Shown: piece by piece, positions 460 through 27,950 of the stretch
Numbering within the stretch: position 1 is the first letter of the stretch
How the letters are laid out: every line of letters begins with the position of its first letter
DNA from: a virus
Lineage: Duplodnaviria > Heunggongvirae > Uroviricota > Caudoviricetes
Length of the DNA: 39,870 bases
Virus record (IMG/VR): IMGVR_UViG_2734482574_000014
Reading direction: 5' to 3' (one strand)
Notes under the pieces: model-generated
What the model saw: only the letters and a program-made list of their open reading frames with translations
Database searches by the model: none
Told to the model about the DNA's origin: nothing
Position numbers and translations under genes: made by a program

Positions 460-555
460 AAGCCCGTATTTTACCGGGCTTATTCTGTGACAACCAGGAT
501 AAAGAGATTTACAGCATGGTCAGGGAGGTCAGCAGCCGCTTAGGCTGTCTATAGC

Positions 556-640
556 GCGGCGATTTTTTTGATACCGATTTGCATTTCATTTGATACCGCT
601 GAAAAACGCCGATACGCAACTTATTTGATACTAAATCGGC
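556..640. repeat. Prophage right end (attR side): terminal inverted repeat region with three TTTGATAC(CG) motifs at 567-574, 588-596, 623-631 (candidate transposase sites R1-R3)
   Basis: Motif is the reverse complement of GTATCAAA repeated three times at the opposite end (39011-39166); ~20 bp terminal match GGCGATTTTTTTGATACCGA vs GGTGAATCATTTGATACCGA. Confidence 0.6.
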
Positions 641-677
641 GCTTTTCTTTTGAGTTTTAGAATGAGTTTTTAAGCGT

Positions 678-1415
678 TCATTCACTCTCTTTCAAACCAG
701 TTTTAACTGTTTGTGGTTTTGGGTAAGGCTGGACTTTGAATAGCTTTGTGTTAAGGCGTTTTCTGGCTCTCTTGTCCAGAAACCGGATGTAACGAAACTG
801 ACGGAATTTATGAACACTGGCTCTGTCGATATTAGCCCGCAGATGTTCACCTCGCTGTCCTCCTCGTTTGATTGCATTCTTGCAAATCTCGTGATACCAC
901 TCGCCATCAAGTTCATAGAATGTTGTTTCATGACTGCCTACATAATCAAAATTGCTTGCCTGGTACACGACACCAAGACAGCCACAACGCTCATCTGCAA
1001 ACGACTGAACCCACTGCACCTGCGGATAAAGTTGTCTGATTAGTTTGAGCGCGTAACTGATTGCCCTTGATTCGGAGTTTCTCGGCATACAGTCATGCAG
1101 CCATAACCGGTTAAGCTCCATATATTCGCGGTTCTGCGTGCCAGTTACGACGCGTGCACCATTGTTTGGATTAAGGGCATAACCCCATTGCATTACGCCA
1201 ACCAGCTCCCGTTCTGAAAATATGCCCAGATGAAGGTAGGAATTATTTACGAAACGATGGCTGTAATGTTTATTGACGACGACCAGCCGGGCCAGCCAGC
1301 AACTTATTGTCTCAACCCGTAACTCACGGGAGCCATAACCGACGATATTGTCGTTATAGTGAATAAGTTCAGGCGTGCTGATGATACGGGATGTAACTTG
1401 CTTTCTGTTCCCCAC
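678..1415 (-). CDS. mom: Mom-like DNA modification protein; start uncertain (frame open to 1610, candidate GTG at 1415 after AAGGA)
   Basis: Position immediately downstream of and overlapping a Com-like zinc-finger gene at the prophage right end, as in Mu com-mom; size ~245 aa; GNAT-like R-x-G-x-L-G patch (ERCGCLG). Confidence 0.5.
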
Positions 1416-1569
1416 GACAGGATTTCCTTGTGTATGTGGGGTGCTCTGTGGCGCTCTGAGATGTGATTTGATTGAGGGTTTTACAGCGCGGACATTTAAC
1501 TTCCAGATAACTGAAGCTGGCTCGTGCCAGTAGCTTGTTACAATGTCGGCACCGTATGTTTCGATACAT
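1369..1569 (-). CDS. com: Com-like zinc-finger translational activator
   Basis: Product contains [10 protein letters not shown]...EVKCPRCK, closely resembling Mu Com (IRCKNCNKLL...EIRCPRCK, from memory); 3' end overlaps the mom frame; real start taken at internal Met (track ORF 1369..1614). Confidence 0.75.
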
Positions 1570-1610
1570 GGCCGCATAACCTCCTGCTTTGTTGTTGATA
1601 TCTTTATCAC

Positions 1611-1825
1611 TCAATCGATCGACAAAAACGATCGATTTGATTTATTTAATTGATACAACAAATAACACGAAATGTCATTAGCGAAAATTTATGAGTTTGA
1701 TCACTAATTTTAAACGGTGCTGTAACGCATAAGTGCTGAATGATTGTACATTTGAATACCGCAAAGCAAACAAATCAACTAATTTATAGAAGTCAATTGG
1801 TTAATTGCCAGCGTAAGAGGCTGCT
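1611..1825. promoter_or_regulatory. AT-rich divergent control region upstream of com/mom (minus) and ORF 1826..2119 (plus), with GATC sites at 1617-1620, 1630-1633, 1699-1702
   Basis: Sequence ATCGATCGACAAAAACGATCGAT seen directly; Mu mom promoter is known to be controlled by Dam methylation of clustered GATC sites. Confidence 0.3.
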
Positions 1826-2119
1826 ATGGACAATCATGTAACGACGAGAAATCGAAAAATGATTGAAAATGCGGAAATCTATAATGATTATTTTTCCGAT
1901 TATTCAGATGCCTGCAAATACAGTTCGAGTGCGGGAGAGTTCATATGCTTCAACTTTTTTATTAAATCTTATGTTTTTCCTCCACAGCAAGAAGATGGAG
2001 GTGTGCCACCTCCTGAAATCACTTTGCACCGTATAGCCTCCGTCTCAATGATGGAGCAACAGGCTAATGAGCTGTATAGCATTCTGGGAACGATTCTACA
2101 AAAGCGTGAATCGGACTAA
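1826..2119 (+). CDS. hypothetical protein, 97 aa, in AT-rich DNA
   Basis: ORF with AAGAGG Shine-Dalgarno ~7 nt upstream of ATG; opposite strand to phage backbone; no recognisable motif. Confidence 0.45.
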   Translation: MDNHVTTRNRKMIENAEIYNDYFSDYSDACKYSSSAGEFICFNFFIKSYVFPPQQEDGGVPPPEITLHRIASVSMMEQQANELYSILGTILQKRESD

Positions 2120-2286
2120 TGATACCGGTTCATTTGCCTGCCCGGATGGGGAAGCAGGATTGACTGCTCCATAAGCAGCTATATTTCTGAATACGAAATA
2201 CTATCCAGCGATTACATATGGCTGGATAGCGGCAAAGATGTTTTCATTAGTGTCAAACCGGCAGAGGACACCACCGGTTTGTATTG

Positions 2287-2541
2287 TTACATCATGGTAC
2301 TGTCAGTTCCGGGCTGAGCCGGGTCTGGTTGCTCTGGCTGCGCGTCGGTTTTCGGCTCATTATCAGCATCACTGGCCGCAACTGCTGGCCCAATAAGTTT
2401 TGCCAGCACTTCATCAACGTAAGTGTCGATTTGTGCCTCAAAATCCTTGCGGACCTGCGCTTTCAGCAACTTATTTACTTCACCGGAATACAGTGCCTGT
2501 TTTACCAGGTCTTCAGTGACGGTGCCTTTAATTTCTGGCAT
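2287..2541 (-). CDS. hypothetical acidic protein, 84 aa
   Basis: ATG preceded by strong AAGGAGG RBS (spacing ~7). Confidence 0.6.
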   Translation of the reverse strand: MPEIKGTVTEDLVKQALYSGEVNKLLKAQVRKDFEAQIDTYVDEVLAKLIGPAVAASDADNEPKTDAQPEQPDPAQPGTDSTMM

Positions 2542-2576
2542 GTATATCCTCCTTATGCGGGAATAAAGCCCTGCAA

Positions 2577-2759
2577 TCAGGGCTGGGTCGGGTCTTTTGG
2601 GAGCGGAGTTACCTGCGCTGTTTTACTGAGTTTTTCAGCTGCTGCGTCCTCAATTTTGCGGCGAACATAATTTCTGATGGCCTTATAACCACCACTCACC
2701 AGATATAACGCACATACTGCCGTGCAGAAATACAATAAAATAAGCTGTAAAAATGTCAT
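2577..2759 (-). CDS. small single-pass membrane protein, ~60 aa (start moved to ATG at 2759)
   Basis: GGGAGG RBS before ATG at 2757-2759; hydrophobic stretch LQLILLYFCTAVCALYLVSGG followed by basic tail. Confidence 0.6.
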   Translation of the reverse strand: MTFLQLILLYFCTAVCALYLVSGGYKAIRNYVRRKIEDAAAEKLSKTAQVTPLPKDPTQP

Positions 2760-2855
2760 TATCCCTCCCAATTATTGACATGGTGTTGACACCGGTAATA
2801 TCTGTTAGGTAAAAAGGTGCACTGCATTTTTTGCTTTGGATATAACGATCTTTTT

Positions 2856-2898
2856 GCCGCCGGTTTCTTGTTTTCCCTTACCGGCGGCATTTTTTTAT
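2856..2898 (+). terminator. rho-independent terminator, functional on plus strand
   Basis: Perfect 9-bp stem GCCGCCGGT/ACCGGCGGC (2856-2864, 2880-2888) with 15-nt loop followed by ATTTTTTTAT; on the minus strand the stem is followed by an A-tract, so termination is strand-specific. Confidence 0.55.
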
Positions 2899-2903
2899 CC
2901 TGC

Positions 2904-4958
2904 TTACGCGTTATTCACTTCCACCACGATACTGTCAATCAGTACCGGGTAAGTCGCATTTTTAGTGATATCGGTCACGCGCAACTTGTCTGCCGTAAAC
3001 GTGCCGACCGGAGACTGCGACAGCATGAATGGTGTCCCGTCCTTACCATCAATGACCGGCGTCACCTCAATACTGTTGTTACCGGCAAAACGGAAGCCCA
3101 GCGTATGCCATTCGTTATTAAATGCGCCGAATGACCCCAGCTTCGTGTTCTGCGCCGTGTTTCCTTTGTGATACATCACGTTAAGGTCTGTGGCATCGCT
3201 CTGTACGTAGAACGATGCCAGCAGGTTATGACCGGCATTTCCTTCCAGAGTAACCCCTTGCGGCAGGGCAGAAACCGGCCAGTACAGCGCCAGTGCGTAC
3301 TGATTAGCCGTAAGCGCGCCATCGAGTTTAAAACGACAACTGACAAGACCACCTTTACCCAGCAGGTCCGCACCATTACCAGCATCATGCTCAAGGTACC
3401 AGGGGGCTCTTCCTGTTTCCTTGGTCAGTTTCATTGCCTTACCCCCGCTGGCTCCGGCATCATCCACGATTTGAGCCTTGCCACCTCCGGCAGCCCAACC
3501 CTGTGGTGTCAACCGTCCTTCAGACTCAGATGCCCGGTAAGCAAATAGCGTACTCATCGTCGTGGTGTCTGCGGGTGGCGTGGACGGTTTTGATGGTGTA
3601 TCAGGTGACGGCTTCTCATCCGGTGGTGTCACGGTCTGCCCACGCATCAGTTCAGCCGTGCGCCCTGCATGGAGCATAATAGCTGAGGCCAGACGGTCTG
3701 AAATGACGCCCCTGCGTGCCCATGAGCTGAAATGGCTGTCACGCTGTGTCGAAACAAAACTGCCCTGGGTTCGGGATGCTGCACCGTAATACCCGACAGC
3801 CACAATATCCGGGTCTTCCGCCGGAGCATTCGTTGGCGTGCTCTGTCCATTCTCATCCGTCAGGAACGGTACAAAGAAAATTTTCTGTGCTTCCTTGCCT
3901 TTGTAGCCACCGTATACTGCCTCATATTTATCGGTGCCAGCGTTTTTCCAGTAATACGTGGTATCACCGCAAATCCACGGCACCGTGGTGGCATTTCCAC
4001 TCACGCACTGCGCAGCAAGCGGAGCCAGGTCAGTTCTGAACTGCTGAACCATGGCCGTGAATAAACTATTATGCTGCTGGCTTCCTGAGGCAAGGTCTGC
4101 CTCTCCCTGCATCCAGACCACAGCCAGAAGTTTGTTTTTCGGGTTTTTCGCCAGCGCGACTTTGGTGCGGCTTACCAGGTCCTGATACAGAGGTTTACCG
4201 GCCCCCCAGCGTGAAGAATCAGCGGAAGCACCGCTGGCCTCACTGAATGAGCCGTCGGCTCCAGTGGTGAATGCTGACCCGCCACGACAACAGGGCACCA
4301 GAAGTATCCCGGCATTCTGTGGGATATAGGGAAGCAGTTTTTTGGCAATATGCAACCCCTGACCGACAGTCCCGTACTGGCCTTTTGCCAGATCAGCTTT
4401 CGGGTGGTTTATCCCGCTCATATCCTGAACATCATGCAGGCAGTGGTCTGCCGGAATGATGTCGTTGTATGTACACGACGTACCGTTGGGCGTTACCGTA
4501 CTGCGGCGTGCCAGTTGCTTAATGCGTGGGTCCGGGCGGTCAAACGAATCCGGTAACGGCAGCCCCTCGCCGTAGGCCATGCCATTTGACTGACCCGCGA
4601 GAATGACAACAAAGTAATATTCCGGCTCTGAACTGCTGCCATTCGTGCTACCGGAAGGCCCGGCGTTATCCGGTGCATTCCAGTCGGAGGGCGTGAGCGT
4701 TCCGGCCACGTCAGATGTGATTGGAATGATGCCAGTCACGCCTGAACTGGTGATTTCTGCACTGGGATTACCGGATACCGGCATTACCCATAATGGCTCT
4801 TTCGTGCTGAAGCGGATCACGCAGTCTGCGAAGGTGATCCCCCCTTTATTACCCGAAGGGCGGAAAGGGCTTTCAATAAATGCCACCGTGCCACCGGCAA
4901 CCTTGACTGAAAACTCTCCGGGCATGGCGGAGAGCATTTTCCACTTGGAGTCTGACAT
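2904..4958 (-). CDS. multidomain carbohydrate esterase: SGNH/SASA-type (sialate O-acetylesterase-like) catalytic domain, Pro/Thr-rich linker, C-terminal putative carbohydrate-binding domain (684 aa)
   Basis: Motifs ILAGQSNGMAYGEG (GQSN block) and VVWMQGEADLA (QGE-D block) typical of SASA/SGNH esterases; linker TPPDEKPSPDTPSKPSTPPADTTT; architecture recalls prophage NanS-p esterases of enterobacteria (from memory). Confidence 0.7.
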   Translation of the reverse strand: MSDSKWKMLSAMPGEFSVKVAGGTVAFIESPFRPSGNKGGITFADCVIRFSTKEPLWVMPVSGNPSAEITSSGVTGIIPITSDVAGTLTPSDWNAPDNAGPSGSTNGSSSEPEYYFVVILAGQSNGMAYGEGLPLPDSFDRPDPRIKQLARRSTVTPNGTSCTYNDIIPADHCLHDVQDMSGINHPKADLAKGQYGTVGQGLHIAKKLLPYIPQNAGILLVPCCRGGSAFTTGADGSFSEASGASADSSRWGAGKPLYQDLVSRTKVALAKNPKNKLLAVVWMQGEADLASGSQQHNSLFTAMVQQFRTDLAPLAAQCVSGNATTVPWICGDTTYYWKNAGTDKYEAVYGGYKGKEAQKIFFVPFLTDENGQSTPTNAPAEDPDIVAVGYYGAASRTQGSFVSTQRDSHFSSWARRGVISDRLASAIMLHAGRTAELMRGQTVTPPDEKPSPDTPSKPSTPPADTTTMSTLFAYRASESEGRLTPQGWAAGGGKAQIVDDAGASGGKAMKLTKETGRAPWYLEHDAGNGADLLGKGGLVSCRFKLDGALTANQYALALYWPVSALPQGVTLEGNAGHNLLASFYVQSDATDLNVMYHKGNTAQNTKLGSFGAFNNEWHTLGFRFAGNNSIEVTPVIDGKDGTPFMLSQSPVGTFTADKLRVTDITKNATYPVLIDSIVVEVNNA

Positions 4959-5043
4959 CGTCTTTTCTGCCTGTTTCTGAATTAAACAGAGTCAGAATAG
5001 CGACCGCTGAAAAATATGTGTTTTGCGGAAATTCAAAAAAGCG

Positions 5044-5616
5044 TCACGGTACTTTTGGTGACGGAGCTGGTGAGGCAGGAAAATAACGATAAAGGGTGGA
5101 AAGGCCAATATCAAATATCAGTGCGATTTGTTTACGGGACTCGCCATTAGCCAGCAAACGGGCGATTTGCTCCCGCTCTTTCTCTGTCAGTTTCTGAGGT
5201 CTGCCGCCATGACGCCCCTGAGCACGGGCAGCAGCAAGACCCGCGCGTGTACGTTCAATAATGAGTTCCCGCTCCATTTCCGCCAGCGCGCCCATTATAT
5301 GGAAAAAGAAACGTCCCATGGGAGTGGATGTATCAATATTGTCCGTAATGCTGCGGAAGTTAACGCCGCGTTGCCGGAGTTCTTCTGTTAAAAGGACAAG
5401 GTGCTGCATACTGCGTCCAAGGCGATCCAGTTTCCAGACCAGCAGGGTATCCCCTGGCCGGAGTCGCTTTAATGCGCGTTTAAGTCCGGGACGCTCCCTT
5501 GTCTTACCGCTTATTCTGTCTTCGAAAAACAGCTCACATCCTGCACATTCCAGCGCATTTCTTTGTAGCGCCGTATTCTGGTCATTTGTTGACACCCTGA
5601 TATACCCAATCAGCAT
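5044..5616 (-). CDS. gin: serine DNA invertase (Gin/Hin/Pin/Cin family)
   Basis: N-terminus MLIGYIRVSTNDQN...GDTLLVWKLDRLGRS...MGRFFFH(I/V)MGALAEMERELIIERT is near-identical in pattern to Mu Gin (from memory); adjacent to invertible fibre segment. Confidence 0.9.
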   Translation of the reverse strand: MLIGYIRVSTNDQNTALQRNALECAGCELFFEDRISGKTRERPGLKRALKRLRPGDTLLVWKLDRLGRSMQHLVLLTEELRQRGVNFRSITDNIDTSTPMGRFFFHIMGALAEMERELIIERTRAGLAAARAQGRHGGRPQKLTEKEREQIARLLANGESRKQIALIFDIGLSTLYRYFPASPAPSPKVP

Positions 5617-5681
5617 ACGATTTCCTTATTATAAAAAGCCGGAATTGTCGCATGAGGAATAAAACAGAGTTAATCCTGGCT

Positions 5682-5707
5682 TTCCTGAAAACCTCGGTTT
5701 ACGGGAA
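5682..5707. other. gix-like inversion crossover site (invertase-proximal): TTCCTGAAAACC-TC-GGTTTACGGGAA
   Basis: 26-bp imperfect palindrome resembling Mu gix / Salmonella hix sites; central TC dinucleotide matches inverted GA core of site at 6999..7024. Confidence 0.6.
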
Positions 5708-5821
5708 ACGGTAAACAGGGCGGCGAATGCCCTGCCATCGGACGGCACCGCCGTTGCCGCGAACAGGCTGGCAAATGCCCACACAATTAATGGTGTTCCC
5801 TTTGACGGGACGCAGGATATC
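5694..5821. repeat. inverted repeat copy B (~125 bp) bounding the invertible segment
   Basis: 5696-5765 is ~68/70 identical to reverse complement of 6941-7012; both copies encode [25 protein letters not shown]...[12 protein letters not shown]. Confidence 0.8.
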
Positions 5822-6046
5822 ACTATCTCATCAGGAACAGTAACCGCCATAAGACTGGGGTCGGTGACCGCACATATGCCCGGAACATGGGAAAGCTGGG
5901 ATCTGAATCTGGGGGGCGGCAATGTTCTTACCGGAATTAAAGTACAGGATGTCGGTAAGAATACGGCAGATAACGTCGGCGGCGTGTATTACCGGCCGTT
6001 GCAGTATCTGTTAAATGGAGCATGGGTGACGGCTGCAAGTATATAA
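5696..6046 (+). other. promoterless alternative tail-fibre C-terminal cassette (Sv'-like), silent in this orientation
   Basis: Plus-strand frame encodes [16 protein letters not shown]...YYRPLQYLLNGAWVTAASI, sharing the conserved block and a similar tip with the expressed fibre C-terminus (...[19 protein letters not shown]); no start codon or RBS at its 5' end. Confidence 0.7.
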
Positions 6047-6055
6047 TGATATTCA

Positions 6056-6073
6056 GAAGGCCTTCCGGCCTTC
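6056..6073. terminator. hairpin between convergent Sv' cassette and chaperone gene (GAAGGCC-TTCC-GGCCTTC), followed by TTTATTA on plus strand
   Basis: 7-bp perfect stem seen directly; weak U-tract. Confidence 0.35.
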
Positions 6074-6077
6074 TTTA

Positions 6078-6599
6078 TTACTGTGGCTGCTCAGGCCATT
6101 TAATGGCGTTAAATTCAGCTTCTGTTTTAATGGCGGGTAGTTCCATTTTCTTCACCTGACTGATGTATGCCATCCATTGGGTAAGTGCTGCTCTGTCTTC
6201 ATCGCTGATGGTGCCCAGTTGTAGCTCCGTTCTCCAGTCATTAATTTTTTCATATGCCTGATTAAGATATGACTGGCGCATTGCTTCCAGTTTTCTTGCG
6301 TAGTTAACCGGAATACGGGAGATTATGCCATTATCAAACTTCCAGTTTCCTGAAATATCCGTGCCTTCAGGGAGTTCATCGACCTCAACCACAGAAAACC
6401 CCGCAGGATACAGCGCCGAGGCGTCCTGTGATATTGAGCAGATAACGCCGCTGTCAGGTGTTATGCAAAGTTTATATTTTTTGGTGAATAATGGCAGGGA
6501 TTCGTAGAAATCCTTACCATCTTCACTCTGGAAATACTGAACATTATTACCATATGGCATATTTTCAGGATAATAACGGGTTATATTTTTTAGTTCCAT
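6078..6599 (-). CDS. tail fibre assembly chaperone (Mu U / Tfa-like)
   Basis: Immediately downstream of tail fibre gene, inside invertible segment; size ~170 aa; typical Tfa-like composition. Confidence 0.75.
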   Translation of the reverse strand: MELKNITRYYPENMPYGNNVQYFQSEDGKDFYESLPLFTKKYKLCITPDSGVICSISQDASALYPAGFSVVEVDELPEGTDISGNWKFDNGIISRIPVNYARKLEAMRQSYLNQAYEKINDWRTELQLGTISDEDRAALTQWMAYISQVKKMELPAIKTEAEFNAIKWPEQPQ

Positions 6600-6650
6600 A
6601 AAATCCTCCTGGAAATAAATCTGTTTTAAAATATATTATTTACTGACTAT

Positions 6651-7541
6651 TTATAACTGAGATACCGTAATCCATGTACCTCCGACTAATTTTTGCAGGG
6701 GTCTGAATGCTATAAAATCGTTTGAAGCATCAACTTTACTGTCAATCTGCAGGCCTGCCATAACATTACCGTACGCAGAGTAATATGCCCCACCGTACAT
6801 TACCTGCCTGTTCTCTGCTCCCAGCCTGATATCCTGGATATATCGGGAATCCGCATCCTGCTGTGTTATACCAGAAGTGATGTTTATGTCCTGCGTCCCG
6901 TCAAAGGGAACCCCATTAATATTTCTTGGGGTGGCGAGTCTATTCGCGGCAACGGCGGTGCCGTCCGATGGCAGAGCATTCGCCGCCCTGTTTACCGTTT
7001 CCCGTAAACCGACGTTATCGATAAAAGCCCCTTTATCCGGAATGTCTGCGCCGTTCTGCTCCCTGCGCAGGTAACGGTTATCACCTTCGCTTTTGCTGTA
7101 AACATCCAGATTATTACGGGCGGTTCCCTTATTCTCCAGGTCGGCGAGATTCTGATCCTTCGCCAGGGCATTAACGTCAGCGGGACCAAGACTGTTTTTT
7201 GTGGCAAGCGTCCCCAGACCAAGATAACCACGGGCCAGACGCTGGGCCTCCGCACCGGCATCAGCAATTTCTTTCAGGTTATTTTTCCGGGAAAAGGCAT
7301 TCGCAGCGATAATGGCTTTAATGGACAGCGTAAGCTGGTTTAACTGCGCCTTATCCGGCTGAATACTGGCTTCAGCCAGAATATTCAGCAGTTCGGCCTG
7401 GAGAATATTCAGCCAGTCCTGACCAATCCAGCTGATACCTTTTTGTCCGTCACCTTCGGTAAACCAGGTGGTGGTATTACTCTGCGCCGGTGCCAGCGCA
7501 GGCATATTCGCCACGCCGGAATTATTATCAACATGAAACAT
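6651..7541 (-). CDS. tail fibre protein (S-like; constant N-terminal part outside, variable C-terminal part inside the invertible segment), currently expressed variant
   Basis: Gene spans crossover site at 6999-7024; C-terminal part duplicated in alternative form on opposite strand. Confidence 0.75.
6885..7012. repeat. inverted repeat copy A (~125 bp) bounding the invertible segment
   Basis: Reverse complement matches 5696-5821 with a short divergent patch. Confidence 0.8.
6999..7024. other. gix-like inversion crossover site (fibre-internal): TTCCCGTAAACC-GA-CGTTATCGATAA
   Basis: Half-sites resemble TTATCNAAAACC-type invertase sites; core GA is the inverse of TC at 5694-5695. Confidence 0.6.
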
Positions 7542-8101
7542 TAAATAGTCTCCTCTTCATGGCTGTTTGCATAAACGTAAATAAACGTCTGCCATGCAGG
7601 CTTATAACGGTTCAGAATACATTCCAGCGCACCGCCTTCATAAATACGCAGCGGCGTGAGAATATCATCCAGCACATTCATATTCCGGTAGCCGGTTTCA
7701 CTGTTAATCGTGACAATACTGACCCACTGCGAATCCGGTGAGGGCTGAATGTCAATCTGATAACCAAACTCCGCCGCAAACCGGATATAAAATTCACGGT
7801 TCAGCGAGGGCTTCATCCGGTATTTATTTCCGGCATAACGCTGTCGCTCCGTGAGGGTGGCTCCGGCCATATCACACTCGGGAAGCCCGAGATAACGCTC
7901 CCAGTCTTCCAGCAGCAGGCGCGACGTGTCAGGGAAACGCTCGGCAAGCAGCTGTTTACCCGTCCAGGATACACGCGCTGTCGAATGACTGAGGCCCAGA
8001 CATAATGATGCCAGTACGGATGACGGACGCTTGTCCCATGCCAGCCCGTCAGGCAGTAACTGCAACAGGGCGCGCTGATGCGGGGTCAGGGTTACAGCCA
8101 T
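7541..8101 (-). CDS. baseplate/tail protein (Mu gp48-like)
   Basis: Position between baseplate J-like gene and tail fibre; ~186 aa. Confidence 0.55.
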
Positions 8102-9174
8102 GTGATTTCTCCTACCGTCAGCAGCTCACTGTCTCCCGCCTGAACTGACGTCAGCGGACTGCGCACTTCAAAATCCTCCAGATTTTTCACCCCTGCCACC
8201 GCCCGCCAGAAAGACGACGGCAGAACCAGACCGCCGGGCCGGGATTCGTTATACAACAGGTCGGTCAGCGCCTGTTTTACGGCCGCCTGATTCTCCGGTG
8301 TTTTCGGGATGATCCTGATGCTGAAGGGCACCGGCTTATTGGTCAGTTTAAACACGGTCACCGTCGGCCCCAGAGGCTGTCCGACAGGCTGGCCGGTCGC
8401 CGGATCATCATGACTGCGGATATAATCCGCCACCCGCTGAACATCACCGTCACCGGGGAAAATATCCGGGTTATTATCCTGAACAAACGTTACCCCCACG
8501 CTGCCCGCCTGCGGCCATTCCGGGCGGCACCATGCCCGCGTCACGCCCGGCACTTCACGCGCCCAGCGTTCAAAATCATACTGCGTGCCGCCGGACGGTG
8601 GATTCTGCACCCGGAAAACCAGACGGGAAAGCAGCTCCGGCACGGTTTCCACATCCGCACCACCGGTGATCCCCGTTCCGGTCACCGTGGCCGTCTGGTT
8701 GATCCCCGCCTGCGGTGTGATAAATGTCAGTTTTGTCCCTGCCGGGGCATTCCCCGCACGACCGGCACTTTCGGCTTCCACACTGACATTCAGCGTACCG
8801 GCCTTACCGGTCAGGGAGGTGGTGATACGGTAAACCACGCCATCACTTCGCTGGAGAAGCACACCTTCCTTGATCCCCGCATCCGTGGTCAGCATCAGCT
8901 GAACCGGCCCGTCCCCCCGAGAGGCAGGCTTACGCATGACGCCCCAGAATGCACAGTGTTTCAGCAGTTCGGCTTCATCGGCTTCGGTCGGGATGATCTG
9001 ACGCGCAATCCAGGCCAGATGCTCATGCTCCTGAGCAGATAACCCTGCCTGAGCGTAAGCAATGGCATTCAGGGTGGTTTCATTCACACCCGGCTGCGAG
9101 CCGGGCAGGCGCTGGCTGATATCCTGCTGTGTCTGCGTGATTAACTGTGCCAGCGGTAAAGGCTGATAAGGCAT
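8092..9174 (-). CDS. baseplate J-like protein (Mu gp47-like)
   Basis: Size (~360 aa) and position in baseplate cluster. Confidence 0.65.
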   Translation of the reverse strand: MPYQPLPLAQLITQTQQDISQRLPGSQPGVNETTLNAIAYAQAGLSAQEHEHLAWIARQIIPTEADEAELLKHCAFWGVMRKPASRGDGPVQLMLTTDAGIKEGVLLQRSDGVVYRITTSLTGKAGTLNVSVEAESAGRAGNAPAGTKLTFITPQAGINQTATVTGTGITGGADVETVPELLSRLVFRVQNPPSGGTQYDFERWAREVPGVTRAWCRPEWPQAGSVGVTFVQDNNPDIFPGDGDVQRVADYIRSHDDPATGQPVGQPLGPTVTVFKLTNKPVPFSIRIIPKTPENQAAVKQALTDLLYNESRPGGLVLPSSFWRAVAGVKNLEDFEVRSPLTSVQAGDSELLTVGEITWL

Positions 9175-9611
9175 TACTCCCCCTTAAGATCAGCATAAAA
9201 AATCATGGGCCTCACTGAACCATCAGGCAGGGTTATGCGCACCGAAAGCGCCAGCCGCGCGTGTCCCACACGTTCTGCATGACAGACCACGGATGACGCC
9301 ACGCCATCCTGACTGAGCCAGCCCAGCGCCTCATCCGCGTAAGCACGGGCACGGCTTATCACCGAGGCCAGCGTTTTTTCCCGGCTGAGAAGCCACAGAC
9401 GGGAGCCAATGGGGCGCGGGCGAAAACTGTCTCCCCACCATCCCCGGCGGTCGCGCGTACCGTCAGGGATTTCATCCGATGCCAGCGCCCGGCGGTCAGT
9501 AAACAGCGAAATCAGAACGGCCGTCAGCAGACTGTCATCCGTCAGCAAGTCGGCACCGTTCAGTTGCAGCGAACCGCACCCCTGATCCCATACAATTGCA
9601 ATATCAGCCAT
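9174..9611 (-). CDS. baseplate protein (Mu gp46-like); start moved to internal MADIAIVWDQ
   Basis: Track ORF 9174..9755 overlaps upstream gene; internal Met at 9611 gives typical ~146-aa protein with ATGA-type overlap. Confidence 0.6.
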   Translation of the reverse strand: MADIAIVWDQGCGSLQLNGADLLTDDSLLTAVLISLFTDRRALASDEIPDGTRDRRGWWGDSFRPRPIGSRLWLLSREKTLASVISRARAYADEALGWLSQDGVASSVVCHAERVGHARLALSVRITLPDGSVRPMIFYADLKGE

Positions 9612-10218
9612 TCTCCGGCGCTCCTGTCTTACTGCCTTTGCCGTTATCCTGATGCACATGGCCGGAATAGGTGATCCCGGCAATAACGGCATCAGACATC
9701 GTGAACAGCCCGTCTGATTTACCTGTACCATCAAGCACGAAATTACCCTTAACATGCAGGTTTTTATCCACCGTCACATTGCCCGTAAAGGTGGCCTCCG
9801 GCGTATCCACCCGCATCCCCTCATCGGCGTAAATCTCCAGCATTTTGCATGTCACAATAATGCGACCATCCTTTGTTAACCGTATCCGGTGCCCCTCATG
9901 GTGATACACCCCCGTATCTCCGGCTGTGAGTCCGGTCGGGCGGCTGCGCCGGTCTTCCACCACAAGCACCACAGTCTGATCCCGCTGTCCGCCCAGACAG
10001 GCAAAAAAGGTTTCCGCACCCGGCAGGGGAACGCTGATCTGCCCGTACTGCTGGGGACGCTCCACATCATCAAAGGTTTCGCCGTCCATGCCGGTGAGCT
10101 GCACATTCTGCATTTTCAGTTCGTCATGTGTGCCGGTCAGAACGCCCCGGCCAAACAACAGGCGAATACCGCGCGTTACCGGGGCAATCAGGCGGCTGAA
10201 CACTTCATCATTCATCAA
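9604..10218 (-). CDS. baseplate assembly protein V / spike-like (Mu gp45-like)
   Basis: ~200 aa, position after P-like gene. Confidence 0.6.
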   Translation of the reverse strand: MMNDEVFSRLIAPVTRGIRLLFGRGVLTGTHDELKMQNVQLTGMDGETFDDVERPQQYGQISVPLPGAETFFACLGGQRDQTVVLVVEDRRSRPTGLTAGDTGVYHHEGHRIRLTKDGRIIVTCKMLEIYADEGMRVDTPEATFTGNVTVDKNLHVKGNFVLDGTGKSDGLFTMSDAVIAGITYSGHVHQDNGKGSKTGAPENG

Positions 10219-11332
10219 AGCTGATCCCCTGTTTTTTCATCTGCTGGCGAATAAAGGCATCAACATCGTCACCGGAACCACCCCGGCCCTTACTGTCCGG
10301 CTCTGCCGGAACGATAAAGCCGTCACGCGGTGCCAGTACCAGCCGGGTGACTTCCCCGTTATGTTCATCAAGTAAAAACTCCACCTGACAGACCAGCAGT
10401 TCAGTCTGTTCTATACCGAAACGCAGGGCTGAAACACCGGTCAGCAGATTGACATCCCATAACCGGCCATCATCCCGGAACCAGCCACGCACGGTGGCAG
10501 AAAACCGTTCTGAACGGGCAATCGCACGGCGCATTTCACGCAGGGCACGCTGCCGTGCACCGGTGGTGTCTGTCTGTTGATCGGCGAGGATGATTTTCGA
10601 CCGGTAGCGGCCGATCTGCTCATCACTGATGACGCCCACAGGTGCTGCCAGACGGGCGGCGGATTCGCTGTCTCCCCGTTTGCCACCACCGCGCCCGTGT
10701 CCCCGGACACGGTATTCGCTGTATCGTCCTCGCCAGTCCGTGTTGTAATCGGCATCAAGCAGGTTATCTCCCAGCACCAGTCTGTCCGTCTGCTGGCTTC
10801 CTGCCTGGGTGAACACCAGATCGCCGTCAGCATTACTGGTCACCAGCACCCCGCGATGCCGGGCAGCACGGGTCAGCGCATCCGCCACGGTTTCTGAGTT
10901 TTCCAGCGTAAAAGAGCTGAAGGGGCGTGCAGCCGTGTCGTCGTTAACCTGCCAGCGCACGGCTATCCCGAAGGGCGCACATAAATCTGCGGCAATCTGT
11001 GCCAGCGTCCGGTTGCGCCACTGGCTGCCGGGATGGATGGCGGCACAGTCCACCAGGTCGCCGGTTTTATCCCGACCGCTGATGCTGATCTGATGACGGG
11101 TTGCACTGATCCGCTGACTGACCTGATCCAGCCAGCCACTGATGACCGTCTGCCCGTTAATTCTGAGCGTCAGGGACTGACCGGTTCGCAGGGCTGAGGG
11201 GATGCGCTCACCGGGCAGCATCAGCCCCAGTTCAAACGACCCGGCCAGATGCTCCAGCGAGCGACGGACGCTGACCGTCAGCCAGCCGGAAAAAATACTG
11301 CCACCGATATACAGTTCAATCCTGCTGCTCAC
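10208..11332 (-). CDS. tail protein P-like (baseplate hub, Mu gp44-like)
   Basis: ~374 aa, immediately after N-like gene. Confidence 0.6.
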   Translation of the reverse strand: MSSRIELYIGGSIFSGWLTVSVRRSLEHLAGSFELGLMLPGERIPSALRTGQSLTLRINGQTVISGWLDQVSQRISATRHQISISGRDKTGDLVDCAAIHPGSQWRNRTLAQIAADLCAPFGIAVRWQVNDDTAARPFSSFTLENSETVADALTRAARHRGVLVTSNADGDLVFTQAGSQQTDRLVLGDNLLDADYNTDWRGRYSEYRVRGHGRGGGKRGDSESAARLAAPVGVISDEQIGRYRSKIILADQQTDTTGARQRALREMRRAIARSERFSATVRGWFRDDGRLWDVNLLTGVSALRFGIEQTELLVCQVEFLLDEHNGEVTRLVLAPRDGFIVPAEPDSKGRGGSGDDVDAFIRQQMKKQGISFDE

Positions 11333-12674
11333 TGATCACCTCCACGCTGCGGCCACCCGGAACAAAAACCGGATCGGGGATATTGTTTCTGCGGACAAAA
11401 TACTGCCAGCGACTGCTGTTGCCGGTGGCACGGTACAGCGTGACCAGTGCCGGTTCGGTGGTGCGAACCATGACCTGAAAAGCACCGGGAAGATGCACGC
11501 TCCGTGTGGTTAAATCTTCTGTCAGCGCAAGCCCTGCATCACGTAATGCAAGGGCAGTCCCGGTATAGCCCTGTGCGGACAGATCCAGCACCTGTTGTTC
11601 CATGGCATCGCTCAAATCCCGGTTGATACGCTGCACATCAGCAGAACTTTCCAGCCAGGCCAGTCCGCCCGAACGGTCAGTATCCTGAACGTGCGTCGTA
11701 TTCTGCCGGATGACCTGATCCAGCAGTTTTCCGAGCGTCTGTGCCTGCGACACCAGGGTTGCACTCTGCATCACGCTCCGCAGCAGACGGATATTTTTCT
11801 GTGCCGCAGGCGTCAGGCCAATCAGGCGCTGTGGATCATCCTGTTCGCTGAGGGTGTAACGCAGGGAGGAAAGTGTGCGGTACAGCTGCGGCATGGCCTG
11901 CTCTGCCATGCTGTCACGGTTTGTGGTCAGGCTGCCGGACGGCGTTCCGGCTTTTCCGGTCAGAGACAGGGAAGGATCGCCGGGCAGCCCGGTCAGCACG
12001 GCAAACATTCCGGCCAGCGATTCAGCCATGCGACGGGGCGCATTAATCAGGGCGGCGGCATTGCCTTTCAGGGCAGTAAAACTGGCCGTAAAGGCACTGA
12101 TATCCTGCACAATCCCCATCCCCGAAACGGCATTCTCCAGTGCATCAATCTTATCGCTGATGGTGTCGGTCATGGCCTGTACATCATGCAGACCGTCTGA
12201 AATCACCGTCCAGCCGTCTGAAAGCGTGTTAAACAGCTGATTCATTGCTGAGCCGCTTTTCTGCTCCAGCGCAGCTGCCGTATCTTCTGCCACCGCAGGG
12301 GCGGTATCGTCACTGGCGGGGATCACGTTGATCGTGAACTCAACCGTTCCCTGCTCGCTGGCGTTATAACGGCTTTCAAAGCTGTTTATCAGCACGTTTA
12401 ACGTGCCGTAATCCGGGTGCATCAGTTCACCGGCACCGGGTGCACGCAGCGCATCACGCAGGCGGCTTCGCTGTGTCTGAAGATCGTCTCCGGTCACCAG
12501 AACCGTGAATGTGAACTCCGGGAGTTTTGGCCCCAGATCATCCGCACCGCCGCTTTCACGCAGTGGGTATTCACGGCGCACAATGTTACGTCCGCCCCGT
12601 TCCCGCTGCTCCTGATAAACCAGGAACGGTACGCCACGAAAGGAGCCACGCCCCGGCGTGTCAGTAGAGGCCAT
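11316..12674 (-). CDS. DNA circularization protein N-like (Mu gp43-like)
   Basis: ~452 aa, immediately downstream of tape measure gene. Confidence 0.6.
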   Translation of the reverse strand: MASTDTPGRGSFRGVPFLVYQEQRERGGRNIVRREYPLRESGGADDLGPKLPEFTFTVLVTGDDLQTQRSRLRDALRAPGAGELMHPDYGTLNVLINSFESRYNASEQGTVEFTINVIPASDDTAPAVAEDTAAALEQKSGSAMNQLFNTLSDGWTVISDGLHDVQAMTDTISDKIDALENAVSGMGIVQDISAFTASFTALKGNAAALINAPRRMAESLAGMFAVLTGLPGDPSLSLTGKAGTPSGSLTTNRDSMAEQAMPQLYRTLSSLRYTLSEQDDPQRLIGLTPAAQKNIRLLRSVMQSATLVSQAQTLGKLLDQVIRQNTTHVQDTDRSGGLAWLESSADVQRINRDLSDAMEQQVLDLSAQGYTGTALALRDAGLALTEDLTTRSVHLPGAFQVMVRTTEPALVTLYRATGNSSRWQYFVRRNNIPDPVFVPGGRSVEVISEQQD

Positions 12675-14718
12675 AGTTCCCTCCGTTCCAGACGTTCACA
12701 TCCAGGCCATGCTGTGCGGTATCATCCACATCAATACTGCGCGCCCGCCAGCCTTCAGGGGCAACAAGCTCCACCCGTGCGGCGGTTTTCGCGGTGGCCT
12801 GTCCGCCGTTTTCGTCACTGCCGCCACGCAGTTTCTGCCAGGCCTGCGTCAGCCAGCCCCCCAGATAATCACCGAGATAGCTGCCCACCGTGGAACCAAT
12901 GGCAACCCCGACCGGACCGGCAGCCGCCCCCAGCGCGCCACCGGCGATACTTCCGGCAAGGGAACCCACGGCACCGGCTTTATCGGCTGCACTGGCGCTG
13001 CTGTCCAGCAGTACAGGAGCCGCCATGGCACCGGCCCACAGGGCACCACCACCCAGCCGACCGGCACCACGGAACAGCCCGGCAAAACGCCCCAGCCCCA
13101 TGCGGTTTCCGGCCGCCGTTAGCAGACCACCGGCACGGCTCATCATACGACCGAAGAAGCCCTGTTTACCGGCACTCTCCGCCAGTTGCTCACCGGCAGT
13201 CACGACGGTCGTGACACCCCGTCCACGTCCGGGGCCGCGTTTTTTACGGCCGCGCACGGTTTTGCCGTCACCGCTGACCACCACATCCCCGCCACCTGAG
13301 GCCAGGCCACCCGCAGGCCAATTGGTGACCAGCACGGGCTGAACGGCAGCCGGATTTACCCCGGTAAGGAAATTCAGGAACCGGCCAGCGCGTCCGGGCT
13401 GCGTTCCCGGTACAGTGGTCTGCGGTTTGCGGAAGGGCGACGTCAGCACGGAGGTCATCGCCATGCCATAGCGTAAGGGGGTTGCGCCGAGACGTAATGC
13501 CCCCGTCCCCGCAAACCTGAGCACCTTCAGCGCACGGGAGGCGAGATACATATACATCAGGTACTTTGCGGCGGTCTGCGCACCCTGACCAATGCGATCC
13601 AGCGCATCGCCATAACCGGCGTCGCGCAGTGCCTGAAGCGTTTCCCTGACTTTCTGAATGACCCGGTAAAAGCCGGTCGCAGCGTCTCTGGCATACTCAA
13701 ATCCCTGATTCAGGGCTGAGGCCGTCTGTGTGGCCAGCTTATCCTGTAAGCCGCTTTTCTGTGCCGCATCAGCATAATCCAGAAAGCCTTTCAGGCTCTT
13801 TTTCAGGCTGTCAAACGGTCCCTTTGCCATCACCTCGCGGGCAAATCCGTCCCAGACATCGCCCATCATGGACGTCATTCCCGTCCAGGAATTCATGGCG
13901 TTTTTCTGGGCACCTTTTGCCTGTTCGGCCATCACCTGAAATAACAGGCGAATGCTGTCCGGTCCCAGTTTTCCTTTCTCGCCTTTCTCACGGATGATCT
14001 TCTGGTTTACACCCAGCTTATCGGCCAGCAACTGGTAAACGTTAATCCCGTATCCGGTCAGAATATTGGCGTCCGCTGCCTGGATACTCTGGCGGGCAAA
14101 CATCTGTTTGAGTTGCAGGGACGCACCCTGTGCATCTGACAGTGACCAGCCGTGATAGCCGCCCTGATCCTGAAGCATGGTAATAAAGCGACGGGCTTCC
14201 CTGTCACTCATACCGAACCCGCGACTGGAGGCGTATTCCTGCATAACCCCCGCCAGCCCCCAGGTGGTGTCTTTGGCGTTCTGTACCGCCCAGGCTTTCA
14301 CTGCTTCCGTTTTTGCCGTATCGCCATGATTAATGGCGTTGAGACGCAGAATATAGTTCTCCATCTCTGCGGCCGGGCGGATAAAGGCTTTATTAAACCC
14401 GTAGACCGCAGCCCCTCCCGCCAGCATCCCGTAAAGGTTGCTTATCCGCCCGATGGTGCCGGTAATGCTGCCCTGAAGGCGGTCAAAATCTGACGTCACC
14501 GTGCGGATACTGCCACGAACACCGGCAAGCGTTCGCTGCATACGGGAGCCGACAAGTTCTGTCTCCTGACCGGCACGACGTGCTGCATTTCCAAGACCAC
14601 CCAGCCCCGTCCTGCCGGAACGGGAGAATGCCCCCAGCTCCTGTGACCACTGGCGGGATTTGGCAGAAATATTGCCGAGTAAATCGACAATCAGGGAGGC
14701 TTTCAGGTTTTTTGCCAT
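12661..14718 (-). CDS. tail tape measure protein
   Basis: 685 aa, Gly/Ala-rich with helical N-terminal half; located after tail assembly chaperone and tube/sheath genes. Confidence 0.8.
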   Translation of the reverse strand: MAKNLKASLIVDLLGNISAKSRQWSQELGAFSRSGRTGLGGLGNAARRAGQETELVGSRMQRTLAGVRGSIRTVTSDFDRLQGSITGTIGRISNLYGMLAGGAAVYGFNKAFIRPAAEMENYILRLNAINHGDTAKTEAVKAWAVQNAKDTTWGLAGVMQEYASSRGFGMSDREARRFITMLQDQGGYHGWSLSDAQGASLQLKQMFARQSIQAADANILTGYGINVYQLLADKLGVNQKIIREKGEKGKLGPDSIRLLFQVMAEQAKGAQKNAMNSWTGMTSMMGDVWDGFAREVMAKGPFDSLKKSLKGFLDYADAAQKSGLQDKLATQTASALNQGFEYARDAATGFYRVIQKVRETLQALRDAGYGDALDRIGQGAQTAAKYLMYMYLASRALKVLRFAGTGALRLGATPLRYGMAMTSVLTSPFRKPQTTVPGTQPGRAGRFLNFLTGVNPAAVQPVLVTNWPAGGLASGGGDVVVSGDGKTVRGRKKRGPGRGRGVTTVVTAGEQLAESAGKQGFFGRMMSRAGGLLTAAGNRMGLGRFAGLFRGAGRLGGGALWAGAMAAPVLLDSSASAADKAGAVGSLAGSIAGGALGAAAGPVGVAIGSTVGSYLGDYLGGWLTQAWQKLRGGSDENGGQATAKTAARVELVAPEGWRARSIDVDDTAQHGLDVNVWNGGNYGLY

Positions 14719-14721
14719 GGG

Positions 14722-14916
14722 TTACTGCTTCGTTCTGAGAATTTTTTCGGTCTGTCGGCAGTGCCGGTAAAGCTGCGATAAGGGGAGGTTAAGCGCCCAC
14801 TCCGGGCCGCTTTTTGTCACCATCCCCAGCACAATTGCGGCTTCTTCAATCTGATCCCGGCACTGCATCTGGTCGCCCCCGTTCAGCGACCAGCTTTCCG
14901 GCCATCGCGGAATCAA
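14722..14916 (-). CDS. ORF overlapping 3' end of tail chaperone gene in +1 frame; candidate frameshift extension or small independent gene (internal ATG at 14868 after GGGGG)
   Basis: Open frame ends 3 nt before tape measure ATG; overlaps 14846-14916 with upstream gene. Confidence 0.35.
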   Translation of the reverse strand: MIPRWPESWSLNGGDQMQCRDQIEEAAIVLGMVTKSGPEWALNLPLSQLYRHCRQTEKILRTKQ

Positions 14917-15322
14917 GCAGGCTTACTGCCGCCATCAGTCGGGAGAGATCGCGCTCGCTGAGCTGTCCTATCTGACGCGGAGACAATGGCCCCTCAATCT
15001 GGCCGACAGCGGCAATCTGACGGCGCAGCAGCGCAATGCCGCGCAGTGCCGGTGAGGCCACAAGAACCGGACCGTTTCGGGTTTCCATAAGACGCTCGGC
15101 CTCGCTCTCCGCATCAATGCTGTCTTTTGCCGTCAGTTCGCGGAAGGTGACGCGGTATTCACGGGATTCCCCGAACGGCAGACCGTCGAGCAGATCCACA
15201 TAGCCGTTCGCCAGTTGTTCAGCCAGCCCGGCGGTGCGGGGATCGCCGTCTTCAAGTGCATCCCGGATAGCCTCCATCACGGCCTCGTCAGAAACCGCCG
15301 TTTTTTTCTTACGTGTGCTCAT
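14846..15322 (-). CDS. tail assembly chaperone (Mu gp41-like)
   Basis: Position between tube and tape measure genes; ~158 aa acidic protein. Confidence 0.55.
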   Translation of the reverse strand: MSTRKKKTAVSDEAVMEAIRDALEDGDPRTAGLAEQLANGYVDLLDGLPFGESREYRVTFRELTAKDSIDAESEAERLMETRNGPVLVASPALRGIALLRRQIAAVGQIEGPLSPRQIGQLSERDLSRLMAAVSLLDSAMAGKLVAERGRPDAVPGSD

Positions 15323-15336
15323 TACATTTTTCCTGA

Positions 15337-15702: not shown

Positions 15703-15710
15703 GCCTTACC

Positions 15711-17491: not shown

Positions 17492-17494
17492 CTG

Positions 17495-18830: not shown

Positions 18831-18873
18831 ATTTGCCCTCCGCAGGGGCCGGGCCGTAAGCCCGGCTCACCGT

Positions 18874-26543: not shown

Positions 26544-26553
26544 GATTCACCTC

Positions 26554-27135: not shown

Positions 27136-27137
27136 CG

Positions 27138-27940: not shown

Positions 27941-27950
27941 ACCTTTTTCC

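Follow-up and report, generated by a model that had tools for sequence, protein, structure and literature searches.

What is a large carbohydrate esterase gene doing next to the DNA invertase of a transposable phage, at a place where only 94 bp separate gin from com in canonical Mu? The question is raised by a 39,870-nucleotide stretch of viral DNA (IMG/VR record IMGVR_UViG_2734482574_000014; the window hereinafter), in which an earlier note had singled out a SASA-type esterase gene lodged between gin and com/mom. Pfam assignments of both neighbors confirm this position (Table 1), and the premise that Mu passes directly from gin to com/mom is sound as well. Canonical Mu shares the order of tail fiber genes, invertible segment, gin, com and mom at its right end, whereas in the Mu-type family considered here the gin-com interval spans ~3.4 kb and accommodates the esterase gene, the genes for DUF1378 and DUF826 proteins and a variable extra ORF, here on the plus strand. 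The carrier is a Mu-type transposable prophage, as indicated by the presence of MuA, MuB, portal, MuF and gpT proteins, a contractile tail, gin, com/mom and terminal repeats; both ends have the outward-facing form CGGTATCAAA-N13-TATA flanked by TGTC, and contain repeated TTTGATACCG motifs along with a short target duplication. A left end at ~39091-39095 was considered and replaced by 39182 upon comparison of both ends with LC727881. In Mu-type genomes, the esterase gene comes right after the tail-fiber genes, the invertible host-range segment and gin; in this prophage, it is located ~24 kb from the lysozyme gene. The palindrome that precedes its start codon is retained in the first of the three lineages of these loci described below, gin-less relatives included, and at 5 of 6 arm positions in the second, and a scan for promoters and terminators performed no better than on shuffled sequence (4 promoter-like sites vs. 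6.8 expected).

Table 1. Features of the esterase locus and its prophage, in window coordinates
Feature	Position	Strand	Basis or detail
Complete Mu-type prophage carrying the module	550..39182	-	MuA, MuB, Mu portal, MuF, gpT capsid, tail sheath
com and mom, overlapping, downstream neighbors at prophage right end	678..1614	-	Zn_ribbon_Com, E 1.3e-12; Mom PF25680, E 1.6e-77
Extra ORF between gin and com	1826-2119	+	
DUF826 small protein, third module gene	2287..2541	-	PF05696, E 6.4e-16
DUF1378 small protein, second module gene	2577..2771	-	PF07125, E 1.2e-31; hydrophobic N-terminal segment
NanS-p-type sialate 9-O-acetylesterase gene	2904..4958 (incl. stop codon)	-	684 aa, ATG start; ORF listing
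Lectin-like jelly-roll domain (DUF6645)	2907..3554	-	aa 469-684; 6yp6 and PF20350
Linker 2	3555..3662	-	aa 433-468; Pro/Thr/Ser-rich, 53% P+T+S; hypervariable between lineages
SGNH type II / SASA catalytic domain	3663..4625	-	aa 112-432; Gln123-Ser124 (block I, GQSN), QGE 284-286, His409 (RDSH)
Linker 1	4626..4715	-	aa 82-111; predicted disordered, Ser/Gly/Pro-rich; pLDDT <50 for aa 82-105
N-domain, Mu-type-specific, predicted all-beta, in place of DUF1737	4716..4958	-	aa 1-81; AF2 and Pfam
Palindrome CTGTTT-N7-AAACAG	4971..4989	-	Ends 12 nt upstream of esterase ATG
gin-type DNA invertase, upstream neighbor	5044..5616	-	Resolvase, E 1.6e-51; HTH_7; phrog_125 DNA invertase

The esterase ORF is genuine and intact. 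The proposed SASA affiliation holds: the HMM search with PF03629 yields 51.3 bits against a gathering score of 24.8 bits (E = 1.5e-13), and the catalytic part (aa 110-428) aligns with the solved E. coli NanS/YjhS, a 9-O-acetyl-Neu5Ac esterase (3pt5; E = 1.8e-117). Moreover, aa 71-684 match phrog_143 with E = 1.7e-296. By homology, the protein is a NanS-p-family sialate 9-O-acetylesterase, a member of a known and biochemically characterized family. The earlier note was silent on the name of this family, as well as on the three-gene module and on the first ~110 aa, with their extra domain and linker. The motifs that it did list are where it had read them (GQSN at aa 122-125 and QGEAD at aa 284-288), and Gln123, Ser124, His409 and QGE284-286 are invariant in an alignment of 20 homologous sequences. 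The canonical Ser-His-Asp triad of SGNH hydrolases, with its DxxH motif in block V, is absent: the corresponding sequence is QRDSH, with the Asp at -2 rather than -3. NanS itself catalyzes with Ser19 and His301, assisted by Gln18, and without a catalytic Asp (PMC9063846), so that the missing Asp is a trait of the family and not a defect. These three NanS residues align with Gln123, Ser124 and His409 of the phage protein. Thus, of the catalytic Ser, Asp and His that a structure had been expected to accommodate, the first and the last can be placed, whereas the Asp had been mis-specified for a family that lacks it. Homology shows Ser124 and His409 as the predicted catalytic pair and Gln123 as the predicted oxyanion-hole residue; as in NanS, a catalytic Asp is lacking. 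The two enzymes differ in build: NanS is a single-domain protein, given by its depositors and in the literature as about 326 aa long, that is homologous to the catalytic domain over its full length, has neither the N-domain nor the lectin-like domain, and is not phage-borne. A full-length AlphaFold model of the phage protein was set aside (mean pLDDT 41.9; the underlying alignment was too shallow, with all sequences at least 78% identical).

Downstream of the catalytic domain, the Pro/Thr linker and the carbohydrate-binding appearance of the C-terminal domain were both read correctly from the sequence, although at 216 aa the domain is slightly smaller than the ~230 aa first assigned to it. This domain matches the solved C-terminal domain of NanS-p (6yp6; aa 469-683, E = 7e-98) and DUF6645 (PF20350; E = 7e-68, above the Pfam cut-off). 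The NanS-p C-terminal domain has been described as a jelly-roll of the lectin-like kind that probably serves as a carbohydrate-binding module (PMC10462455, PMC8065619), and the four aromatic residues proposed to form the sugar site (PMC10462455) are all retained here, as Y554, Y559, Y584 and F654. The C-terminal domain is probably a carbohydrate-binding module that holds the enzyme on sialoglycans. The linker that precedes it is only 17-19% identical between lineages. No hydrophobic stretch was found anywhere in the protein, and the maximum 15-residue Kyte-Doolittle mean within the N-terminal 75 aa is 1.08; therefore the protein has no signal peptide, as the earlier note had also concluded, and for want of one the esterase would have only two ways out of the cell: phage lysis or carriage by a particle.

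The NanS-p proteins of lambdoid phages share the SASA and DUF6645 domains, likewise lack a signal peptide and are likewise followed by DUF1378 and DUF826. In Stx phage 75/02, a lambdoid locus (L043) and all Mu-type loci that are long enough to show it, the gene after the esterase is the one for DUF1378, and the complete order esterase-DUF1378-DUF826 is the same in Stx phage 75/02, L043 and the Mu-type loci. The settings differ: in lambdoid Stx phages, the same three-gene module adjoins the lysis genes, with the nanS-p gene between stx/Q and the holin gene, whereas the copy described here is at the far right end of a transposable Mu-type myovirus prophage. DNA identity to the lambdoid L043 locus is 88% from window position 4626 to 2625, that is, from codon ~111 of the esterase gene to a point inside DUF1378. 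The onset of homology is also at 4626 for the Stx phage locus L004 and at 4625 for the Salmonella locus L041. From these coincident onsets, the 3' end of linker 1 is a recombination breakpoint with lambdoid nanS-p alleles, and the comparison shows that the catalytic and C-terminal domains, together with the start of DUF1378, form a module that is exchanged by recombination with lambdoid prophages.

Upstream of this breakpoint, the Mu-type copy is a different protein. In place of the DUF1737 domain that lambdoid NanS-p carries at the N-terminus, there is an unrelated domain of ~80 aa, for which no Pfam family was found at E<=10 with the N-terminal 110 aa or with the three Mu-type N-domains searched. 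Control N-termini match DUF1737 (PF08410) with E-values of 8.7e-19 for an Stx phage and 3.1e-8 for a P2-like phage. The P2-like phages, which had been entertained as a third N-terminal type, were ruled out because their N-terminus is DUF1737. The AF2 model of the Mu-type N-domain comprises five strands and no helix within aa 1-80 (pLDDT of 77-88 by 10-residue blocks over aa 11-70), with a predicted shape of a small beta-barrel or jelly-roll; the DUF1737 fold, one helix and three antiparallel strands, is absent from it. In the protein database, the two architectures are separable by length, with proteins of 678-691 aa lacking PF08410 and proteins of ~647-650 aa containing it, and beyond the swap point (aa ~95-684) they are up to 91% identical. 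A word-indexed protein search with the N-domain retrieved only fragments of the three lineages, to which an exhaustive phmmer search added a single Salmonella fragment (P0125); another phmmer match (P0126, E = 7e-4) was rejected as spurious, being of low complexity and unrelated in appearance. All 37 of the 37 N-domain loci are Mu-type right ends, and they fall into three lineages, with Salmonella represented. Among the 347 phage records with an esterase homologue, the N-domain is present in 2, both of them Mu inserts inside Stx phages, and the lambdoid Stx matches listed align only from aa ~63-112 onwards, mostly from ~94-110. Apart from these two inserts inside Stx prophages, none of the isolated phages in the collection combined this backbone with the gene, and a search for proteomics found none. 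This comparison shows the N-terminal ~110 aa to be particular to the Mu-type prophages, where they stand in for the DUF1737 of lambdoid NanS-p.

A mosaic locus of this kind could be a decaying passenger, a non-functional leftover of recombination with lambdoid phages in which the first ~110 codons are an accidental fusion; the mosaic surroundings fit such an origin, as does the existence of relatives that lack gin or have a frameshifted gin. Nevertheless, the ORF is intact in each of the three lineages, whose N-domains are just 30-60% identical, and dN/dS is ~0.03-0.15 in every domain. For the N-domain, dN/dS is 0.03-0.05, compared with 0.09-0.13 for the catalytic domain, values that derive from few substitutions (1-3 nonsynonymous and 8-16 synonymous). 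By this measure, the N-domain is under strong purifying selection. Furthermore, the Mu-type backbone was found in 248 E. coli genomes, lineage 2 of the N-domain in 205 and lineage 1 in ~28, so that roughly 230 of the 248 appear to have the gene, an estimate from separate totals that were not matched genome by genome; hence the gene appears to be near-universal in its host family of Mu-type prophages. Of the complete E. coli genomes, about 4% contain such a prophage, many O157:H7 strains among them. Decay is already contradicted by the dN/dS values and the invariant catalytic residues, and the prevalence of the gene also speaks against it; we consider this reading extremely improbable.

What, then, is the gene maintained for? 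By analogy with characterized relatives, the enzyme would strip 9-O-acetyl groups from Neu5,9Ac2, either bound in mucin glycans or present as free sialic acid, and the deacetylated sugar would become usable by E. coli. For homologues of the lambdoid type, esterase activity on Neu5,9Ac2 and mucin has been shown, together with a benefit to growth (PMC8065619), so that, of the roles put forward in the earlier note, a host-benefit esterase freed at lysis has experimental backing in the family. The simplest form of this role would be a free enzyme that builds up in the cytoplasm while the phage grows lytically, escapes at lysis and is never borne on a particle, with surviving lysogens profiting from the unlocked acetylated sialic acids; under such a scheme, the N-domain would be an extra carbohydrate-binding, oligomerization or stability domain. 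Such a role is the classical one for NanS-p and has experimental support (PMC8065619), the predicted small barrel or jelly-roll would also suit a binding module, and a paralogue search with the N-domain against all other ORFs of the window returned nothing below E 0.08, so that the domain has no sequence relative among the other proteins of the prophage. We give such a free enzyme a chance somewhat short of even. It leaves unexplained why the N-domain tracks phage type so strictly, with all 37 of its loci of the Mu type and the domain absent from ~345 non-Mu phage records, while the remainder of the gene is freely exchanged with alleles of lambdoid phages at one fixed point. Moreover, in phage phi24B it is a capsid anchor that occupies this N-terminal position.

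The phi24B protein, gp84, has the same three-part layout as the Mu-type esterase, in which a flexible linker joins a small N-terminal domain to the esterase and another linker joins the esterase to a lectin-like domain, and Ser-rich linker motifs occur near the first junction (GSSSEPE here and ASSSPS in lineage 2). According to a 2026 preprint, gp84 is anchored to the capsid via DUF1737, a fold of one helix and three strands that occupies a hexon pore as a hexamer (bioRxiv 10.64898/2026.04.10.717836). In contrast, the Mu-type N-domain is predicted to be all-beta, with no detectable similarity to that of gp84. For N-terminal docking as such, gp84 is a precedent. The suggestion that the esterase might be a tail-associated protein fares accordingly: virion association is supported for gp84, yet on the capsid and not on the tail (bioRxiv 10.64898/2026.04.10.717836).

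A role on or near the particle could also take the form of an adsorption aid, with the enzyme, virion-borne or acting locally, de-O-acetylating bacterial surface polysaccharides, be it the O-antigen or a capsule (for instance, one of O-acetylated polysialic acid), and thereby exposing the phage receptor; functionally, it would be a tail-associated receptor modifier. The adjacent tail-fiber genes, invertible host-range segment and gin are in keeping with this idea, as is a weak partial match to phrog_25867, a 'tail protein' (E = 1.2e-6, aa 211-312), whereas the catalytic domain closely resembles NanS, an enzyme with 9-O-acetyl sialic acids as its known substrates. Most E. coli hosts of these prophages, e.g., O157:H7, are not known to have sialic-acid surface polymers. 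The same review that raises the possibility for NanS-p notes that experiments have yet to support any part in attachment (PMC8065619), and the sole localization data for the family again place the protein on the capsid and not on the tail (bioRxiv 10.64898/2026.04.10.717836). We regard an adsorption aid as unlikely.

Given the parallel with gp84, we propose, tentatively and at distinctly less than an even chance, that the N-domain is a virion-docking adaptor on Mu-type particles that does the same job as DUF1737 on lambdoid capsids; it would be a phage-type-specific adaptor that fixes the esterase to the Mu-type particle. The presence of DUF1737 esterases in P2-like phages implies that DUF1737 is not bound to a single capsid type and hence weakens a strict reading of one adaptor per morphotype. 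Our confidence in the account as a whole, that is, the identity of the enzyme, the shared module, the exchange of the N-domain and the near-universal occurrence of the gene, is high.

NanS-p proteins have been discussed as fitness factors that enable pathogenic E. coli to feed on the acetylated sialic acids of mucus. As far as the sequences go, the enzyme family and the lectin-like domain are the known part of the gene and the N-domain of the Mu-type copy is the part that differs, so that this copy amounts to a natural domain-swap experiment in which the enzyme and the lectin-like domain are kept while a different, strongly constrained domain occupies the N-terminus. If the N-domain does not dock, the gene still belongs to a known enzyme family and is carried by a phage unusual for it. 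If docking does occur, display on the particle, beyond release at lysis, would be what selection maintains, and a new adaptor domain would be defined. Display would then have been retained across unrelated phage morphotypes through the exchange of the N-terminal adaptor alone, and NanS-p would be primarily a structural or accessory protein of the phage and not a host-benefit 'moron'.

The 684-residue open reading frame between gin and com/mom lies, with its ATG start, where the earlier note had placed it, and its catalytic part matches the Pfam SASA family above the cut-off (PF03629, residues 117-312, E 1.5e-13) and the solved structure of NanS/YjhS, the E. coli 9-O-acetyl-N-acetylneuraminic acid esterase (3pt5, residues 110-428, E 1.8e-117). 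The C-terminal part matches Pfam DUF6645 (PF20350, residues 533-650, E 7e-68) and the C-terminal domain of phage phi24B NanS-p (6yp6, residues 469-683, E 7e-98). NanS catalysis relies on a Ser19-His301 pair, Gln18 sits in the oxyanion hole, and a catalytic Asp is absent (PMC9063846); the alignment to 3pt5 puts Ser124, His409 and Gln123 at these three positions, and each of them is invariant among homologues (n=20). Moreover, the four aromatics proposed as the sugar-binding site of the phi24B domain (PMC10462455) are all kept (Y554, Y559, Y584 and F654). Together, the structural matches and the kept catalytic and sugar-site residues identify the protein, at the level of sequence, as a NanS-p-family sialate O-acetylesterase. 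Thus, the enzyme assignment of the earlier note was correct and its interpretation is supported overall, the sole error in the enzyme call being the expected Ser/Asp/His triad, which does not apply to this family; the claimed lack of a signal peptide is borne out by the absence of a suitable hydrophobic segment. NanS-p members from O157:H7 and O104:H4 prophages are active on Neu5,9Ac2 and mucin glycans and support growth on Neu5,9Ac2 (reviewed in PMC8065619). This enzyme family had been characterized before, which makes the finding as first written an ordinary one. In RefSeq, the gene is labeled either 'DUF6645 domain-containing protein' or 'sialate O-acetylesterase'.

The window contains an entire Mu-type prophage, encoded on the minus strand (MuA, MuB, Mu portal, MuF, gpT capsid and tail sheath). 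The gap between gin and com in canonical Mu is only 94 bp, and the approximately 3.4 kb that separates these genes here is therefore extra, as had been proposed. A palindrome, CTGTTT-N7-AAACAG (4971-4989, minus strand), stops 12 nt 5' of the esterase ATG. It is kept in lineage 1, the sequence group of the window, and largely kept in the 69%-identical lineage 2, and might serve as an operator or form an RNA hairpin close to the ribosome-binding site. The prophage (ends at 550 and 39182) sits within an IS66-family element that makes up the flanks (1-549 and 39183-39870) and whose transposase gene apparently lacks most of its N-terminal part. Read outward, both prophage ends are CGGTATCAAA-N13-TATA, and both are flanked by TGTC (546-549 and 39183-39186), in agreement with the annotation of LC727881, which gives its Mu insert a duplication of 4 bp.

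Features of the window and of the esterase (nucleotide positions unless marked aa)
Feature	Position	Strand	Remark
IS66 transposase C-terminal fragment	1-459		
com and mom	678-1614		downstream neighbors of the esterase
97-aa ORF	1826-2119	+	opposite strand, between DUF826 and com
DUF826	2287-2541		after DUF1378
DUF1378	2577-2771	-	directly downstream of the esterase
Esterase	2904-4958	-	684 aa
GQSN motif	aa 122-125		in the esterase
QGEAD motif	aa 284-288		in the esterase
Pro/Thr/Ser-rich linker	aa 433-468		in the esterase
Separate C-terminal domain	last 216 aa		in the esterase
gin-type invertase	5044-5616	-	upstream neighbor, same strand as the esterase
IS66 TnpB	39170-39493		3' end interrupted
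IS66 orfA	39490-39870		

Gene order and DNA homology place the esterase in a three-gene module shared with lambdoid phages. In Shigella Stx phage 75/02, the esterase is followed by DUF1378 and DUF826 between stxAB and the holin, and the lambdoid prophage that encodes protein P0030, the closest DUF1737-type relative, has the order Q, esterase, DUF1378, DUF826, holin, lysozyme, Rz1. The DNA of the latter locus matches the window from 4626 to 2625 with 88% identity, that is, from esterase codon ~111 to the middle of DUF1378, and the left edge of homology is almost identical in Stx phage 75/02 (4626) and in a Salmonella relative (4625). The DUF1378 protein consists of a hydrophobic N-terminal segment (…FLQLILLYFCTAVCALYLVSGG…) and a charged tail, and its gene accompanies the esterase in both examined lambdoid loci and in nearly every Mu-type locus that extends far enough; a functional link, e.g., membrane or lysis-related handling, is possible. 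Farther downstream, the 97-aa ORF, which has no Pfam or PHROG match, lies within a low-GC stretch (1615-2286, 42% GC), and other ORFs occupy its site in relatives (135 aa in locus L006, a small CxxC-rich one in L002 and a hypothetical protein of 154 aa in O157:H7 PA20). The DUF826-com interval looks like a variable cargo slot. In L002, the Mu insert of Stx2c phage LC727881, com is followed by a 350-aa protein (9420-10472) instead of mom; its cytosine-5 DNA methyltransferase-like motifs (…GGTPCQAFS…), by which alone it was judged, suggest that the com-controlled DNA-modification gene is exchangeable.

The N-terminus follows a different distribution. Esterase homologues are encoded in 347 phage records, nearly all lambdoid Stx phages, and among the matches listed the alignment starts at residue ~63-112, mostly ~94-110; the first ~100 residues were found in only two records, each annotated as a Mu-like phage inside an Stx prophage. 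In a collection of 5.8 billion proteins, homologues fall into two clean-cut architectures, one of 678-691 aa that spans the entire esterase and lacks PF08410 (DUF1737), the other of ~647-650 aa that contains PF08410 and covers only the last ~85% of the esterase at ≤91% identity. The N-terminal 110 residues of the three Mu-type lineages gave no Pfam match at E≤10; the N-termini of an Stx-phage and a P2-like-phage homologue, used as controls, matched DUF1737. An exhaustive phmmer search with residues 1-105 against 1.84 billion representatives yielded a single further relative, a Salmonella fragment in which a Pro/Thr linker and the beginning of a NanS-type esterase again come after the N-domain, here 30% identical. 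This gene, too, belongs to a Mu-type prophage, after baseplate genes, tail fibre, invertible segment and invertase. The Mu-type context is uniform in all 34 retrieved IMG/VR N-domain loci and two further loci; Mu-specific markers are present in 36 of 37 loci, the remaining short one showing only a 99%-identical gin. In the Salmonella enterica locus (L041), invertase and esterase are set apart by a pair of small ORFs without a Pfam match (58 and 87 aa, 9426-9910), and the tail-fibre genes are of another type (Phage_fiber_2, gp37_trimer, DUF4376).

With an alignment of the three lineages as input, AlphaFold models residues ~7-79 as five beta strands (pLDDT of 77-88 in 10-residue blocks over residues 11-70) and residues 82-105 as a disordered linker, whereas DUF1737 of phi24B is described as one helix and three strands (bioRxiv 10.64898/2026.04.10.717836). 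Fold searches returned only a generic cupin or jelly-roll resemblance. Within lineage 1, the N-domain differs by 8-16 synonymous and 1-3 nonsynonymous substitutions per comparison, with dN/dS of 0.03-0.05 (catalytic domain, 0.09-0.13; C-terminal domain, 0.12-0.15), counts that are small yet consistent over five comparisons. The N-domain is a real domain under constraint.

The backbone MuA gene occurs in 248 of the 5426 complete E. coli genomes, the lineage-2 N-domain in 205, many of them O157:H7 (strain PA20 is an example with the gene order of the window), and that of lineage 1 in about 28. Given these totals, which were compared as such and not genome by genome, the esterase appears to be near-core in the Mu-type family rather than sporadic cargo. 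In some E. coli genomes, the Mu-type esterase or the backbone is present two to four times, and two copies are plasmid-borne, which is consistent with spread by transposition inside a genome. LC727881.1 and LC727895.1 (L002) contain complete same-backbone Mu-like prophages nested in Stx1a and Stx2c prophages, and these composites have a DUF1737-type NanS-p gene in addition to a different, Mu-type one. Among relatives, gin is lost in L005, L011, L012, L016, L019 and L025-L027, which still have its final ~60 bp as well as the intergenic stretch that precedes the esterase, and is frameshifted in strain DLI.5a (L001 24496-25067), where most structural genes are gone; the tail-fibre segment is therefore fixed in a single orientation in this part of the family. 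A literature search found nothing connecting NanS-p with Mu-like phages, and the literature on Sp18 is silent about the esterase gene; as far as we found, neither the replacement of the N-terminal domain in Mu-type prophages nor the near-core standing of the gene in this family has been described.

With respect to function, homology shows the protein to be a Ser-His esterase for 9-O-acetyl sialic acids that has a lectin-like targeting domain; by analogy with its homologues, it would de-O-acetylate mucin sialic acids. Because it lacks a signal peptide, its only routes out of the cell would be lysis and carriage on a particle. The phi24B NanS-p, gp84, is reported to be a virion protein whose DUF1737 N-terminus binds capsid hexons as a hexamer, the remainder being cleaved off later (bioRxiv 10.64898/2026.04.10.717836). 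In Mu-type prophages, DUF1737 is swapped at a fixed breakpoint for another constrained domain and the remaining gene recombines with lambdoid alleles, the pattern expected if the N-terminus were a phage-type-specific adaptor. Against a strict form of this reading, P2-like phages also use DUF1737, and no structural result points to a binding partner. We rate it at somewhat less than an even chance that the N-terminus of the Mu-type esterase would serve as an adaptor specific to the phage type.
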